NCBI GenBank assembly: GCA_963666365.2
Contig: CAXXNF010000002.1
Location: 2,406,667 to 2,470,666, forward strand
Length of the DNA stretch: 64,000 bases
From: Syntrophales bacterium
GTDB taxonomy: Bacteria; Desulfobacterota; Syntrophia; Syntrophales; UBA2210
Direction of reading: 5' to 3'
Below the pieces are notes generated by a model, which was not told the DNA's origin, ran no database searches, and saw nothing but the letters and a program-made list of their open reading frames with translations. The position numbers and the translations under genes are program-made. This document shows, piece after piece, positions 18,420 through 24,848 of the stretch. Each line of letters begins with the position of its first letter. Within the stretch, counting starts at the first letter, position 1.

Positions 18420-19655
18420 TTACGAGAGGGAGAGAAGGTAGGATCGAAGATTTGCCTTTTTGTTGTTGAATCCCATTTTCGCCCTGATATTGTTGCGGTG
18501 GAAATCGATGGTGCTGGTGGCCAGATTCAGTAATGCGGCGATCTCCTTGGTGGTCTTCCCCTCCTTGATCAGGTTGGCGATCTGGATCTCCTTTGGCGTG
18601 AGGTTGAAGTCGTTCAGGGTCATGTTTCTCAGAAAGGGGGATACGATATTGTTGAGATTCGCTTCGATAATGCTGAGATAGGTTTCCTGCGCCTCAGAAA
18701 GATGGGTCATTTTCAATTTTTCAATAAAGGGCAGCACCAGTTCCTTGACGTTGGACAGGACATTGCGCTCCAGTTCCACCTTGTCTTCCTCCCGATGCTT
18801 GAGGAGCACCTTGAGGGCCGTGTTTGCTTCGGCAAGATAGCGGGAACTCACGTTCAGCTCCTGCTCCCGTTTCTTGAGCACGTCCTCAGTCTCCTTCCGC
18901 TTGGAGATATCCCTTACCACAGCGCGAAAGCCGACAGGCACGCCGGAGGGGTCGCGAATCAACGATGCAGAGAGTTCGCGGATACTCCTTTTGCCGTCCT
19001 TGCCGATCGTTTCGTATTCGAAAAGCTCTGCCGGGGTTCCTGTCCGATAGATGCCGTTGAAAATATGGAAAAGGGTGCGCGCCGTTTCAGGTGAGGTATA
19101 CTGCCGAAAATTTGTACCCAGTATATCCTCTCGGGAATAGCCCGACATAGTGCACATGGAGTTGTTCACGAAGCTATAGGCGCCGGAAAGATCCACTTCA
19201 AAATAGCCCTCTTCAATATTTTCAAGTATGGAACGGTACTTCTCCTCACTTTCGCGCAAGGCCGCCTCCGCCTTCTTTCGCTTCGTCACATCACGCGCCA
19301 CGGCCCTGAAGCCGCTGGGGTTTCCCTGAGGATCACGGATCAATGAAGCCGACAGCTCTCGGATACTGTAATCGCCGTCTTTTCTGACAATCTCATCATC
19401 AAAAAGCTCGGCTGATTCCCCGGTCCGGTAAATCCCGTTAAAAATCCTGAACAATTTTTCAGCCGTTTCGGGAGCATAATAAACCCTGTAATTACTGTTC
19501 AACACTTCTTCCCGCGGCCGTCCCAGCATGCGGCACATGGCATTGTTCACAAAGGTATAGGTACCGGCGAGATCCACCTCGAAATACCCTTCCTCGATAT
19601 TCTCCAGAATCGATCGGTACTTTGCTTCACTTGCGCTATCTTTGCCCTCAACCAC
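18420..19655 (-). CDS. PAS-PAS-LuxR family transcriptional regulator
   Basis: Two tandem PAS units ([18 protein letters not shown] twice), a coiled coil, and the Lux[26 protein letters not shown]...HRNNIRAK. Confidence 0.92.
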
Positions 19656-19660
19656 GGTAT

Positions 19661-19720
19661 TTACCCCCTATAATGCCGCCAATTATTCCCTATTGCCCTT
19701 ATCACAACTCTGTCATATTT
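19661..19720 (+). promoter_or_regulatory. Putative operator/promoter of the oadG-oadB-acd-gcdA operon (copy B)
   Basis: Inverted homologue of 18351-18410; overlaps the RBS of the regulator gene on the other strand. Confidence 0.65.
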
Positions 19721-19794
19721 ATCAACCCTCTGATCGCCCGGGATGGTCGCACAATCAAGGGCATCAAACTAAGGGAAGGAGGTCTCCGATTCAA

Positions 19795-19932
19795 ATGGTG
19801 GATATGGGATTGGCGCTCAAGATAGCCGTCGGCGGTTTCGGCCTGGTATTTATTCTCCTCATCCTCTTGTCATTTACGGTATGGGTGACAAAGGTCGTCA
19901 CTGAAAAGATATCAAAATCGAGAAGCGAGTAA
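19795..19932 (+). CDS. Na+-translocating decarboxylase small membrane subunit (OadG/GcdD family), 45 aa
   Basis: MVDMGLALKIAVGGFGLVFILLILL single TM with the GxxxVF motif; AAGGAGG upstream; directly precedes the beta subunit. Confidence 0.8.
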   Translation: MVDMGLALKIAVGGFGLVFILLILLSFTVWVTKVVTEKISKSRSE

Positions 19933-19955
19933 CGCGGATTCCGGGAGGTACACAC

Positions 19956-21299
19956 GTGTTCGGTTTATTAGAAAGCGGTTTTCAGTATATTACCTGGGGC
20001 AACGTCCTGATGATCATCATCGGCTGCGTCCTCATATATCTTGCCATCGGCAAAAAGATGGAGCCCCTTCTGCTGCTGCCCATCGGCTTCGGCATCATGC
20101 TGGTCAATCTTCCCATGGGGGGGCTCATGGACTACGAATACACGCTCAGGGCCCCGAGTCCGGGAATGGTCAGCCGGCTCTCCGTGGAGCGGGGGGACAG
20201 CTTCGAGTGCGGCGCGGCCATTGTCGCGACCGATGCCGGGGAGATCACTTCCCCCGTCTACGGGCGGGTCGCGAAGTTCAGGGTGACGGAGAACCAGAGA
20301 GTCGATGCGGGCGATGTGGTGGCGGTCATCGTGACGACACAGCAGACGGATCAGGAGAAGATTCCCACCCGGCCCGTGGGGCTTCTTTCTCGCTTTTTCG
20401 CCTTCGGCATCATGTGGCAGATTCTTCCCCCGCTGATATTTCTCTGTCTGGGGGCGCTGACCGATTTCGGCCCCATGCTGGCCAATCCCAAGACGCTGCT
20501 CCTGGGTGCGGCGGCGCAGTTCGGCGTGTATTTCGCCTTTTTTCTGGCAATTTTCTGTGGGTTCACCCTTCCTGAGGCAAGTTCCATCGGCATAATCGGC
20601 GGGGCCGAGGGCCCCACCACGATCTATGTGACGGCCCGGCTCGCGCCCCATATTATCGGCGCCACCGCCGTGGCCTGCTATTCCTACATGGCCCTGGTGC
20701 CGCTGATCCTTCCCCCGGTTATCAAACTTTTGACGACCAAGAAGGAGCGGTCCATTTACATGAAACCCCAGCTTCGCAAGGTGTCGAAGCTGGAAAAGAT
20801 CCTCTTCCCCATCGTGACCGCCATCGTGGTGATCCTCTTCGTGCCCGACTCGGCGCCCCTGATCGGCTGTTTCATGGTGGGCAATCTCTTTCGCGAGAGC
20901 GGGGTGGTTGAACGGCTCAGCAAGACGGCGCAGACGGTGTTCATCGACATGCTGACCATCTTTCTGACCCTTGCCATCGGCGGCACCATGTCGGCGGAAA
21001 ACTTCCTTCGGGTGGACACGCTCCTCATACTGGTTCTCGGCGTGGTTTCCTTTGCCAGCGCCGCCGCCGCCGGCGTGATTCTGGCAAAGATCATGAATCT
21101 CTTCCTGAAAGAGAAAATCAATCCCATGATCGGCGGGGCGGGCGTCTCTGCCGTCCCCATGTCGGCACGGGTCGTTCAGGTGATGGGACAGAAGGAAAAC
21201 AAGCAGAACTTCCTCCTGATGCACGCCATGGGACCCAACGTGGCCGGCGCCATCGGCGCCGCCATCGCAGGCGGCGTCTTTATCGGAATCCTGGGATAG
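19956..21299 (+). CDS. gcdB: Na+-translocating decarboxylase beta subunit (OadB/GcdB family) with an inserted biotinyl-like domain
   Basis: EPLLLLPIGFG, GALTDFGP, YSYMALVP, NPMIGGAGVSAVPMSARV, MHAMGPNVAG. Confidence 0.9.
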   Translation: MFGLLESGFQYITWGNVLMIIIGCVLIYLAIGKKMEPLLLLPIGFGIMLVNLPMGGLMDYEYTLRAPSPGMVSRLSVERGDSFECGAAIVATDAGEITSPVYGRVAKFRVTENQRVDAGDVVAVIVTTQQTDQEKIPTRPVGLLSRFFAFGIMWQILPPLIFLCLGALTDFGPMLANPKTLLLGAAAQFGVYFAFFLAIFCGFTLPEASSIGIIGGAEGPTTIYVTARLAPHIIGATAVACYSYMALVPLILPPVIKLLTTKKERSIYMKPQLRKVSKLEKILFPIVTAIVVILFVPDSAPLIGCFMVGNLFRESGVVERLSKTAQTVFIDMLTIFLTLAIGGTMSAENFLRVDTLLILVLGVVSFASAAAAGVILAKIMNLFLKEKINPMIGGAGVSAVPMSARVVQVMGQKENKQNFLLMHAMGPNVAGAIGAAIAGGVFIGILG

Positions 21300-21431
21300 A
21301 ACACCTACAATTTCAAAGATTTCCTTGAAGGGTTTACAGGCAATCATGACACCAGGCAACCCACCGATTCTTTTGGGTTGCCTCTTGCGCCTAATTGAAC
21401 TATAAATTTTCATTACACAAGGAGGGAAATC

Positions 21432-22595
21432 ATGAATTTTGAATTGTCCGAAGAATTAGTGATGTTGAGAGATACGGTCCGCTCTTTCGCAGCGGAAAAA
21501 ATCGCGCCCTTTGCCGATGAGTGGGACGAAACACACTATTTCCCCTATGAGGAAGTGATAAAACCCATGGGAGAATTAGGGTTTTTCGGCACAGTGATTC
21601 CCGAGGAATACGGCGGCAATGAAATGGGATGGCTGGCGGCCATGATCATTACCGAAGAGATCGCCCGGGCCTCGAGTTCGCTTCGCGTGCAGGTGAACAT
21701 GCAGGAAATCGGTTCTGCCTTCACAATTCTCAGGTACGGATCGGAAGCACTCAAGAAAAAATACATTGCCCGACTGGTCAGTGCAGAACTGCTGGGCGCC
21801 TTCGCCATTACGGAACCGGAGGCGGGCTCCGACGTCATGGCAATCAAGTCGACGGCTCAGGATAAGGGGGATCACTGGCTTATCAACGGCCAGAAAACCT
21901 GGATATCGAACGCCTCCATCGGCGGCATCAACATTTTTTACGCTTACACCGATCGGTCGCTGGGAGGAAGAGGGCTTTCAGCCTTTGTGGTGGAGCTTGA
22001 AAACTTCAACGACATTACTGTGACCGATCTGGATAAAATGGGTTCCCGGTCATCGCCAACCGGTGAAATCATCCTGGAAAACACACGGGTCCCCAAGGAA
22101 AACATTCTCGGCAAGCCGGGAGACGGCGCCAAAATTGTGTTCGGATCGCTTGCGCAATCGCGCCTTTCGGCAGCAGCGGGCGGCGTGGGACTGGCACAGG
22201 CCTGCCTGGATGAGGTCACCAAATATGCCATGGAGCGGGTCCAGTTCGGACAGCCCATCGGCGCATTCCAGATGAACCAGGCCCTTGTCGCCGAGATGGT
22301 GGCGGAAATAGAGGCGGCGCGACTGATGGTGTACAAAGCGGCATGGCAGAAAGATCAAGGCAATCTGAACAACAATCTTGAAGTGGCCCAGGCCAAGTAC
22401 CTGGCCGGCGAATTGGCCTATAAGTGCTCACAATATGCTATGCGTATACTGGGCGCCTATGGGTACTCCACGGAGTATCCGGTGGCCCGTTACTTCAGGG
22501 ATGCACCGACCTATGCCATGGTGGAGGGCTCCGCCAATATCTGTAAATTTATTATTGCCCAGGACCAGCTGGGGATACGAAAAGCGAACCGGTAA
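21432..22595 (+). CDS. acd: Glutaryl-CoA dehydrogenase, non-decarboxylating type
   Basis: Closely resembles the Desulfococcus-type enzyme as recalled (GWLAAMIITEEIAR, LRVQVN, ILGAYGYSTEYPVAR, MVEGSANICK); adjacent to gcdA. Confidence 0.88.
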   Translation: MNFELSEELVMLRDTVRSFAAEKIAPFADEWDETHYFPYEEVIKPMGELGFFGTVIPEEYGGNEMGWLAAMIITEEIARASSSLRVQVNMQEIGSAFTILRYGSEALKKKYIARLVSAELLGAFAITEPEAGSDVMAIKSTAQDKGDHWLINGQKTWISNASIGGINIFYAYTDRSLGGRGLSAFVVELENFNDITVTDLDKMGSRSSPTGEIILENTRVPKENILGKPGDGAKIVFGSLAQSRLSAAAGGVGLAQACLDEVTKYAMERVQFGQPIGAFQMNQALVAEMVAEIEAARLMVYKAAWQKDQGNLNNNLEVAQAKYLAGELAYKCSQYAMRILGAYGYSTEYPVARYFRDAPTYAMVEGSANICKFIIAQDQLGIRKANR

Positions 22596-22711: not shown

Positions 22712-24481
22712 ATGAGACGCTACTTTGAAAAGATGGATGATCTGGGCAAACCGATACGGCCGGCGCAGATCGAACGGATGAAGGCAAACATCGCCCAGAT
22801 CGAAGAAGTGATGCGAGAGATCGACGGAGAGGCCGAACGGATTAAAAACGTAGGAATCTCGGACGAAGTGATGCACAAACGGGGAACAATGACCGTCTGG
22901 GAGAGAATCGAATATCTCGTTGACCCGGGAACGTTTTGTCCTCTTCACACGATTTTCGACCCGGGACGGGAGGAGTCGGGAAGCACGGGGGTGGTGGACG
23001 GCCTCGCCAGAATCGGCGGCAAATGGTGCGTGCTGATCGGATTCAACAATAAGTGGATCGCCGGCGCCTGGATCGCCGGACAGGCCGAAAACAATCTGAG
23101 GGTCACCGATATCGCCAAGATCATGCATCTCCCCCTGGTGTGGCTGGTCAACTGCTCCGGCGTCAAGCTGCCGGAACAGGAAAAGGTCTATGCCAACAGA
23201 AGAGGCCAGGGCACCTGTTTCTTCCGGCATGCCGAATTGGAGCAGATGGGCATCCCGGTCATCGCGGGCATCTATGGAACCAATCCTGCGGGCGGCGGCT
23301 ACCAGGGCATCAGCCCCACTATTCTTCTGGCCCACAAGGATGCAAATATCGCCGTGGGCGGGGGAGGTATCGTCAGCGGCATGAGCCCCAAGGGATTTTT
23401 CGATGAAGAGGGCGCCGAGCAGCTCATCGAAGCAACCCGGCATTTCAAGGCCGAGCCGCCGGGAAGCACGAAGATTCATTATGACGAAACGGGCTTCTTC
23501 ACCGCCGTATTCGAAAAGGAAACGGAGGTGCTTGACGCCATTAAAGGCTACATGGCCGACATGCCGGCTTATAATTCCCGCTTCTTCAGAGTGGCCGCGC
23601 CGGCGGAACCGAAGTATGCACCCTCGGAAATTGCCTCCCTTATCCCCATGAATCAGAAAGCCGTCTATGATTTCGAAAACGTCCTGGCGCGGCTGGTCGA
23701 CAATTCGGAGCACCTTGAATTCAGGCCCGATTTCGGTCCCGAAATGTATACGGGCCTCGTGAAAATCGACGGCTATTTAGTGGGCGTGATCGGCAACCGC
23801 CAGGGACTCCTGCCCGACTATCCCGAATACACCAACGAATATATCGGCGTCGGAGGAAAGCTGTATCGCCAGGGGCTGATCAAGATGAGCGAATTCGTCA
23901 CCCACTGCGGACGTGATCGTGTACCCATCGTCTGGTTCCAAGACACCTCGGGCATCGATGTGGGCGATACCGCTGAAAAGGCCGAACTGCTGGGGCTTGG
24001 GCAATCCCTCATTTACTCGATCGAACAGACGGAACTGCCCATGATGCTGGTGGTACTGCGGAAGGGAACGGCGGCGGCCCATTACGTGCTGGGAGGTCCC
24101 ACGGCCAATAACAACAATGCCTTCACTCTGGGAACGCCGGCGACGGAAATTTACGTCATGCATGGTGAAACGGCGGCGGCGGCCAGTTACTCGCGGAGAC
24201 TCGTCAAGGAGAAGGACGCGGGCCGCCCTCTGGGACCGATCATCGAAAAGATGAACGAAATGGTCGCCCATTACCGCGATACCTCTGGTCCGCTTTTCTG
24301 CGCCAAAGAGGGATTTGTTGACGAGATCATACGCTTTGAAGCGATGAGAAAGTACATGGTGGCCTTTGCGAACGGCGTATACCAGAACCCGCGATCGATA
24401 TGCCCCCGCCATCACATGCTGCTGCCGCGACTGATACGTTCGCAGATCGTGAAAGGGCTTAATCGCCCTGCAGCGGAATAA
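22712..24481 (+). CDS. gcdA: Glutaconyl-CoA decarboxylase alpha (carboxyltransferase) subunit
   Basis: NCSGVK, GTNPAGGGY, QDTSGIDVG, LRKGTAAAHY, YVMHGETAA, YQNPRSICP.HHM. Confidence 0.93.
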   Translation: MRRYFEKMDDLGKPIRPAQIERMKANIAQIEEVMREIDGEAERIKNVGISDEVMHKRGTMTVWERIEYLVDPGTFCPLHTIFDPGREESGSTGVVDGLARIGGKWCVLIGFNNKWIAGAWIAGQAENNLRVTDIAKIMHLPLVWLVNCSGVKLPEQEKVYANRRGQGTCFFRHAELEQMGIPVIAGIYGTNPAGGGYQGISPTILLAHKDANIAVGGGGIVSGMSPKGFFDEEGAEQLIEATRHFKAEPPGSTKIHYDETGFFTAVFEKETEVLDAIKGYMADMPAYNSRFFRVAAPAEPKYAPSEIASLIPMNQKAVYDFENVLARLVDNSEHLEFRPDFGPEMYTGLVKIDGYLVGVIGNRQGLLPDYPEYTNEYIGVGGKLYRQGLIKMSEFVTHCGRDRVPIVWFQDTSGIDVGDTAEKAELLGLGQSLIYSIEQTELPMMLVVLRKGTAAAHYVLGGPTANNNNAFTLGTPATEIYVMHGETAAAASYSRRLVKEKDAGRPLGPIIEKMNEMVAHYRDTSGPLFCAKEGFVDEIIRFEAMRKYMVAFANGVYQNPRSICPRHHMLLPRLIRSQIVKGLNRPAAE

Positions 24482-24632: not shown

Positions 24633-24848
24633 TTATTCCAGAATCATCAGCACCTGGTCCGCTTCCACGGAGTCTTTTACCTTTACTTTAATTTCCTTCA
24701 CCGTTCCATCGGCGGGCGCATAAATGGGGTTTTCCATTTTCATGGCTTCAAGGATCAAAAGCTCATCGTCTTCCTTCACCGCATCGCCCACATTTACCAT
24801 AATTTCCAATATGTTCCCCGGCATGGGGGCACAGACATCTACGCTCAT
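24633..24848 (-). CDS. gcdC: Stand-alone biotin carboxyl carrier protein (71 aa)
   Basis: APMPG...EAMKMEN biotinylation motif; AGGAGG RBS. Confidence 0.85.
   Translation of the reverse strand: MSVDVCAPMPGNILEIMVNVGDAVKEDDELLILEAMKMENPIYAPADGTVKEIKVKVKDSVEADQVLMILE

Follow-up and report, generated by a model that had tools for sequence, protein, structure and literature searches.

Why should the membrane subunit of a biotin-dependent ion pump hold, in one of its loops, a domain built like a biotin carrier that has lost the very turn to which biotin is attached? The question is raised by a 64,000-nucleotide stretch of DNA, the window, from a Syntrophales bacterium (assembly GCA_963666365.2, contig CAXXNF010000002.1, positions 2,406,667 to 2,470,666), in which the gene at 19956..21299 on the plus strand encodes a 447-amino-acid (aa) beta subunit of a decarboxylase pump of the GcdB/OadB family. 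An earlier note, made from the sequence alone, had pointed to the insert in this subunit. Our analysis identifies it as a contiguous, unsplit domain of the biotin carboxyl carrier protein (BCCP) type without the cofactor turn, which very probably lies on the membrane's periplasmic side and which we consider rather likely to be a structural part of the pump.

The identity of the gene is clear. The open reading frame (ORF) has a GTG start, seven bases 3' of a GGGAGG box, and its product matches the Pfam family OAD_beta (PF03977) over residues 16-445 with an E-value of 2.1e-150 (501 bits, cut-off 31.6), covering positions 2-348 of the 349 in the profile. TIGR01109 is matched with 487 bits (cut-off 190.6), and the structures 6iva/6iww are found from the sequence with an E-value of 3.9e-111. 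The AlphaFold2 (AF2) model built from a 109-row alignment (A1) has a mean predicted local distance difference test (pLDDT) score of 93.3 and a predicted template modelling score of 0.88, and supersedes a run on the single sequence (pLDDT 43.3). It matches Salmonella OadB (6iww_A) with an E-value of 1.3e-27 in Foldseek, and with a Z-score of 49.7 and a root-mean-square deviation (rmsd) of 2.5 Å over 382 residues in VIA-align, and shows the ten transmembrane helices and two helical hairpins of the OAD_beta fold, as in 6IWW. The T1-T2 helical hairpin (residues 14-50, 19995..20105, plus strand; model helices 14-32 and 37-50) holds the predicted cytoplasmic loop KKME, and E36 of this loop, the equivalent of Salmonella E40, is present in 52/52 rows of the main clade that carries the insert. 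The OadB residues E40, T148/D149, Y227, R304, S382, R389 and N412 correspond to E36, T169/D170, Y242, R320, S398, R405 and N428 here. On sequence grounds, the ORF encodes the membrane subunit of an ion pump driven by biotin-dependent decarboxylation, of the glutaconyl-CoA type, with pumping itself assigned by homology.

After the two N-terminal helices, the family profile skips about 83 residues (58-140). The earlier note had described about 66 extra residues after the N-terminal hydrophobic segments (20139-20336, residues 62-127 of the ORF) and had called them biotinyl-like, and the profile scan bears this out. Biotin_lipoyl (PF00364) is found in the whole subunit with 24.1 bits (cut-off 22.1) at residues 64-125, on profile positions 3-73, and the isolated insert gives 30.1 bits with Biotin_lipoyl, 33.8 bits with Biotin_lipoyl_2 (cut-off 29.8) and 28.6 bits with HlyD_3. 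In the AF2 model, the domain (residues 60-127, 20133..20336, plus strand) is an all-beta barrel-sandwich with strands at 60-65, 70-75, 88-92, 95-98, 103-108 and 121-127 and a pLDDT of 94-98. Its residues 60-126 superpose on the BCCP of Pyrococcus horikoshii (5gua) with a Z-score of 11.3 and an rmsd of 0.8 Å over 67 aligned residues (34% identity), and Foldseek gives a template modelling (TM) score of 0.88 on the target. The next structural matches are transcarboxylase 1.3S and the BCCP domains of carboxylases.

The lost turn is seen most directly beside the free biotin carrier of 71 aa that is encoded in the same window. BLASTP aligns the two over 64 columns (25% identity, E 3e-7) with one 4-residue gap, and the biotinyl lysine of the carrier stands opposite Gly95 of the insert, so the alignment with the carrier minus its AMKM turn that the earlier note had drawn is reproduced. 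At the place of the MKM turn with its biotinyl lysine, the insert has the shortened hairpin tip D93-A94-G95 (20232..20240, plus strand). In 121 aligned sequences, hairpin positions 93-95 are free of lysine. Of the 121, 11 do match a loose MKM-like pattern, but all of these matches fall within the first strand, at residues 63-66, and none at the hairpin. Having lost four residues at the MKM turn, the domain cannot be biotinylated. Profile, alignment, AF2 model and superposition on BCCP thus agree on a non-biotinylatable barrel-sandwich domain that has been inserted in a beta-subunit loop, as proposed.

Two groups of known domains share the fold. The P. horikoshii BCCP (5GUA, 2D5D) aligns with the insert over 67 of 71 residues with 33-35% identity, and compared with BCCP domains the insert is four residues shorter at the MKM turn and has no tip lysine. 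BCCP carriers are cytoplasmic, whereas the insert sits in a loop of a membrane protein, probably periplasmic and hence beyond the cytoplasmic ligase and carboxyltransferase. The lipoyl domains of the periplasmic adaptors MacA (3FPP), AcrA (2F1M), HlyD (5C21) and MexA (1VF7) are, like the insert, cofactor-less barrel-sandwich hybrids, and would share its location in the periplasm. They match it with 21-25% identity and with Z-scores of 9.7-10.1, at most about 1.5 away from those of the BCCPs. The adaptor domains, however, are split by a long helical hairpin (the aligned ranges span 130-270 residues), whereas the insert is continuous.

Where the domain sits can be read from the alignment with 6iva, in which residues 7-57 of the query align to chain residues 11-61 and residues 141-443 to chain residues 120-427. 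The whole T2-T3' segment (residues 58-140, 20127..20375, plus strand) stands opposite chain residues 62-119, in place of domain E of Salmonella OadB, and no sequence similarity between the two segments is reported in this alignment. Salmonella/Klebsiella OadB (6IVA, 6IWW) thus has the same family fold with an extra solvent-exposed domain at the identical site (Xu et al., 2020; PMC7274780). According to that paper, domain E consists of four helices (alphaE1-4) between T2 and T3', is poorly conserved and missing in some organisms, and contributes to the trimer interface in a small way through helix alphaE4. The earlier note had stated that characterised beta subunits carry no such domain at this place. 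This needs correction, as the site is occupied in Salmonella OadB; domain E is made of four helices, and the insert is modelled as an all-beta BCCP fold.

Four lines of evidence bear on the side of the membrane. Xu et al. (PMC7274780) orient the complex by the gamma tail, which binds the cytoplasmic alpha subunit, and place Glu40 (E36 here, in the T1-T2 loop) and Thr148/Asp149 (T169/D170 here, after T3) on the cytoplasmic face, which would put the segment following transmembrane helix T2 on the opposite face. Under that topology, lysine plus arginine average 9.2 in the cytoplasmic loops versus 0.5 in the short outer loops, with the larger value on the cytoplasmic side in 109/109 aligned sequences. 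In the table of an independent survey, OAD_beta is entered as 10H-2RH-Nout (PMC8396727). Furthermore, many members of the family carry extensions of 90-260 residues before T1, and in 20/22 representatives examined the extension starts with a signal-peptide-like hydrophobic segment, as judged by a hydropathy threshold. One of these extensions holds a CarboxypepD_reg domain and the others have no Pfam name. Homologous structure, charge bias and family architecture together make it very probable that the insert loop lies on the periplasmic side. As a side observation, the pre-T1 extensions (representatives P0122-P0264) suggest that OAD_beta proteins bear more than one kind of addition on their outer face.

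The T2-T3' site is, to judge from the representatives, a hot spot for variable insertions. A search of representatives at 50% identity gave 5887 proteins at E <=0.001, and among the best 150 of these 5887, both anchors with a non-negative gap were found in 93. The gap was <=30 aa in 76, 31-60 aa in 10 and >60 aa in 7. What fills it varies: P0121 holds a BCCP-like stretch at a sub-threshold 21.8 bits, P0126 a 132-aa split barrel-sandwich with about 50 extra residues, P0199 and P0131 contents that look helical and Salmonella-like by eye, and the others contents without a Pfam match. Another representative, P0185 (512 aa), joins an ABC_tran ATPase (residues 21-169) to the C-terminal two thirds of OAD_beta, either as a fusion or as an artefact of assembly or gene calling.

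As for the origin of the domain, a search through 401 sampled genomes of the phylum gave BCCP-like stretches as its best non-self matches. The four of these that were examined aligned to the insert with 37-42% identity and a single 4-residue gap exactly at the MKM turn. The three long ORFs among the four have the domains HMGL-like, PYC_OADA and Biotin_lipoyl, as alpha subunits of the OadA/PycB type do. The insert is most likely a copy of the BCCP domain at the C-terminus of such a subunit. In a tree of the core region, all close homologs fall in one clade with a Shimodaira-Hasegawa-like approximate likelihood ratio test (SH-aLRT) support of 100, P0121 adjoins this clade and P0126 lies far off. 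The tree was made by a quick method with the insert columns excluded, from 73/109 rows of A1 (35 close homologs and the fragment P0211 were omitted), and only its topology was used. With P0121 adjacent and P0126 distant, it suggests one main origin of the BCCP-like insert plus at least one other.

Once acquired, the domain has been kept. The T2-T3' segment is 83 aa long in 119/121 aligned sequences. Within the insert, P100, G103, G119 and Q130 are invariant (121/121 each), D93 and R104 are found in 118/121, and T127 is nearly or fully conserved. The identity of the insert to the query has a median of 46%, versus about 75-80% for whole proteins. All of the best 120 database relatives (74-98% identity) retain it, and their lengths are 447 aa in 85, 448 aa in 23, 429 aa in 8 and others in 4. 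A precomputed PF00364 match is present on 96/120, and the source names are Smithellaceae, Smithella, Syntrophales, Deltaproteobacteria and Desulfosalsimonas. A word-indexed search with the insert alone found four proteins among 51 candidates and is silent on distribution, the insert being too divergent for shared words of five residues.

In the class of the window, OAD_beta occurs in 202/339 genomes and the insert form in 39/339, counted with a 116-aa probe at E <=1e-10 and full coverage. By family, the insert form was found in 23/37 genomes of f1 plus the window's own genome, 2/2 of f117, 8/116 of f3, 4/7 of f123 and 1/18 of f4, and this probe found it in none of the other 19 families of the class. 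In the 401-genome sample of the phylum, it was confined to G363 and the window's own genome. Species genomes scanned with a pattern gave eight loci, six of them with the insert in context, from four metagenome-assembled genomes (MAGs) labelled Syntrophales, Smithella or 'Deltaproteobacteria' and two Dehalococcoidia MAGs. The two Dehalococcoidia records (L038, L039) encode insert-bearing beta subunits of the Glu type, 69% identical overall, and could reflect transfer between phyla or mis-binned contigs. The architecture is thus common in one class, and our literature searches found no paper that describes a biotin_lipoyl insert in OAD_beta. In the aligned sequences, the insert form marks a sub-family of pumps that has Glu at the position of Asp203 of Klebsiella/Salmonella OadB.

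This position belongs to the ion site. Helical hairpin 1 has GGAEGPT at its tip, in which Glu218 (20607..20609, plus strand), mapped from the 6iva alignment, replaces the canonical Asp by a conservative change. Glu is present in 52/52 main-clade rows versus Asp in 48/54 other representatives, and P0121 and P0126 keep Asp together with their BCCP-like inserts. Two further positions have changed compared with OadB: N311 of Salmonella is Thr (residue 327) in 51/52 main-clade rows and S419 is Ala (residue 435) in 52/52. S382 at the tip of hairpin 2 (S398 here) and N412 in T10 (N428 here) are kept in 52/52 rows, and the equivalents of E40, R304 and R389 are likewise kept in the main clade. Both Dehalococcoidia loci combine the insert with the Glu and the Thr, and one also has the Ala. 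According to Xu et al. (PMC7274780), the substitutions D203A and S382A abolish Na+ binding, and supplementary file 8 of that paper lists 0% activity for the D203N/E variants of Klebsiella OAD (KpOAD), with pumping lost. Since D203E is dead in the Klebsiella enzyme, the ion pocket of the insert sub-family would have to work differently.

The genes around the beta subunit fit a decarboxylase pump, and those for carboxyltransferase, biotin carrier and a small gamma/delta subunit are all present in the window. Directly upstream lies a small gamma-like subunit of 45 aa (19795..19932, plus strand), with one transmembrane helix and only about 14 residues after it; the longer ORF at 19642-19932 gives a weak match to OAD_gamma (PF04277) with an E-value of 1.7e-4. 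The 45-aa gamma form directly upstream of beta is conserved in 8/9 related loci. Salmonella gamma has a C-terminal tail that binds alpha (PMC7274780), in contrast to only 45 aa for the whole gamma of the window. Downstream follow an acyl-CoA dehydrogenase of 387 aa (21432..22595, plus strand; Acyl-CoA_dh_N, _M and _1 domains), a carboxyltransferase of 589 aa resembling the alpha subunit GcdA (22712..24481, plus strand; PF01039, E 2.3e-93) and the free 71-aa biotin carrier (24633..24848, minus strand; PF00364, E 1e-21), which has an intact AMKM motif and neither linker nor anchor. Further upstream, the minus strand encodes a PAS-PAS-LuxR regulator, a 613-aa acyl-CoA dehydrogenase and a thiolase. 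The locus is, by its predicted gene content, a system of the glutaconyl-CoA decarboxylase type. In the glutamate fermenters Acidaminococcus and Clostridium symbiosum, GcdB plays the same part and works with GcdA, a biotin carrier and a small subunit that serves as anchor. These GcdB proteins are given as 35-39 kDa, the size of the insert-less form; where that paper uses 'GcdB' or 'extra', it says nothing of an inserted domain, and neither 'insert' nor 'lipoyl' is among its words (Vitt et al., 2020; PMC7145394).

A related genome, G645, has two operons that each hold, in this order, a carboxyltransferase, a carrier of 71-73 aa, a 44-aa gamma and an insert-bearing beta; the carboxyltransferase of one is 81% identical to that of the window and the other is of a different type. 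In the window's own genome, the gamma plus beta cassette (19794..21304, plus strand, 1511 nt) exists in two copies with 99.93% identity. The second copy lies near 743.9-745.4 kb of G000:C2 (L003 7898-9432), with flanks that differ from those of the window copy: an AMP-binding acyl-CoA ligase on one side and a different carboxyltransferase of 551 aa on the other. The same order of ligase, gamma, beta and carboxyltransferase is found in G620, a genome of the same genus. One membrane module therefore seems to serve two carboxyltransferases. A specific link of the insert to the 44-46-aa gamma or to the 71-aa carrier was considered and rejected, as both also stand beside insert-less beta genes (L022, L024, L027).

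Two side observations concern the same loci. The PAS-PAS-LuxR(GerE) regulator (18420-19655, minus strand), divergent upstream of the gamma and beta genes, is a candidate dedicated regulator, and its homologs (37-40% identity) adjoin beta genes with and without insert in four other loci of the class (L017 3532-4608, L021 3506-4579, L028 3379-4512 and L029 6476-7489). In addition, L017 (9026-10231, minus strand) and L021 (7794-9014, minus strand) each contain a second, divergent OAD_beta-like gene of 401-406 aa with 32-33% identity, located 1.5-2.7 kb from the insert-bearing beta.

For a gene whose identity, fold, lost lysine turn and distribution are observed, we infer the following role of the domain. 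Members of the sub-family carry a fossil biotin-carrier domain in the variable T2-T3' loop, at the site of domain E. The domain would lie on the periplasmic face, while carboxybiotin is decarboxylated on the cytoplasmic face, and it would therefore take no part in the carboxyl shuttle. It is attached to T2 and T3', two helices of the scaffold that forms the trimer and stays static in an elevator-type transporter, and as a domain that would be periplasmic, cofactor-less and anchored in this way, it probably acts as a rigid structural cap or buttress in place of domain E. Taken as a whole, this statement of a cofactor-less replacement of domain E that acts as a cap or buttress outside the carboxyl shuttle is one that we hold to be rather likely. 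The domain is under selection, with constant length and conserved residues (D93, P100, G103, R104, G119 and Q130) despite fast divergence. A predicted complex of three copies of residues 56-142 scored 0.03 against a mark of 0.42 in a run without controls, which speaks neither for nor against a trimeric cap. A role as a periplasmic 'proton antenna' was dropped as unsupported; a preprint makes the case for the cytoplasm as the source of the chemical proton (10.64898/2026.06.08.730933).

Several points weigh against the structural cap. The membrane side is read from a homologous structure, a charge bias and the family architecture. An older fusion-based topology of Klebsiella OadB by Jockel and colleagues in 1999 reportedly has a cytoplasmic N-terminus, which would place the loop inside. 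The conservation of residues other than the fold glycines (D93, R104, T127 and Q130) could be the trace of some specific contact or function, and the insert travels with the remodelled ion site (E218, T327 and A435), which could mean a functional link. The domain might then be a working part of the pump that, from the outer face, gates or tunes ion release, specificity or reversibility and has co-evolved with the ion pocket. The co-occurrence of the insert with Glu, Thr and Ala at the frequencies given above, the recurrence of this package in the two Dehalococcoidia loci, the pocket that must work differently from that of Klebsiella, the conservation of D93, R104 and Q130 and the high pLDDT in both linkers, which suggests a fixed pose in the model, all speak for such a part. 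However, P0121 and P0126 combine BCCP-like inserts with Asp, so that the two traits are separable, the insert hangs on the scaffold helices and not on the moving core as described by Xu et al. (PMC7274780), and the co-occurrence may reflect only shared descent within one clade. We regard this explanation as unlikely.

That the domain is an evolutionary relic without a role, tolerated in a loop that accepts almost anything, appears quite unlikely. It would account for the hypervariability of the site across the OAD_beta family, for a domain E that is poorly conserved and missing in some organisms (PMC7274780) and for an insert that evolves faster than the core, but it does not sit well with a length of 83 aa in 119/121 sequences, with several invariant residues other than glycine, or with a very confident predicted fold kept across two phyla. 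The earlier note had thought of docking, assembly or regulation. As a pseudo-carrier in the cytoplasm, the domain would dock the carboxyltransferase or the carrier to the pump, or compete with the real carrier at the carboxybiotin site, and its descent from an alpha-subunit BCCP fits this idea, as does a locus with a 45-aa gamma and a bare 71-aa carrier, which encodes no obvious tether for the soluble subunits. The older Klebsiella topology, reportedly with the N-terminus inside, would also agree with it. Short gammas and bare carriers, however, also stand beside insert-less beta genes in the same class, four independent lines put the loop outside, and the conserved E36 in the T1-T2 loop is the equivalent of a residue given as essential on the cytoplasmic face (PMC7274780). 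A periplasmic loop makes docking to, or regulation of, a cytoplasmic carboxyltransferase or carrier very improbable, and of the three proposed roles assembly alone would survive, as a structural role in the periplasm. A bolder proposal starts from the two inverted repeats of which beta is built, through which the periplasmic face may hold a pseudo-symmetric counterpart of the cytoplasmic carrier pocket. The dead carrier could dock on this outer counterpart and there latch the elevator; it would have evolved together with the change from Asp to Glu and would tune direction or ion specificity in energy-limited syntrophs, for which a reaction run both ways has been proposed. We consider this very unlikely.

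Few primary ion pumps are simpler than the biotin-dependent decarboxylases, for which the mechanism of coupling is still debated. A 2026 preprint disputes the source of the chemical proton (10.64898/2026.06.08.730933). The OAD_beta family and the domain-E site were already known, and within them the dead BCCP domain marks an undescribed sub-family. For annotation, a Biotin_lipoyl match on such a beta subunit should not be taken for a biotin carrier. For the mechanism, the sub-family may serve as a natural experiment in two ways: a cofactor-carrier domain appears to have been moved across the membrane and retained under selection, and Glu is native at the position where D203E is dead in the Klebsiella enzyme. 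The insert sub-family is the form found in glutaconyl-CoA-type operons of syntrophic degraders of benzoate and fatty acids. As these syntrophs would use it, the ion specificity and reversibility of such pumps may bear on life near the thermodynamic limit.

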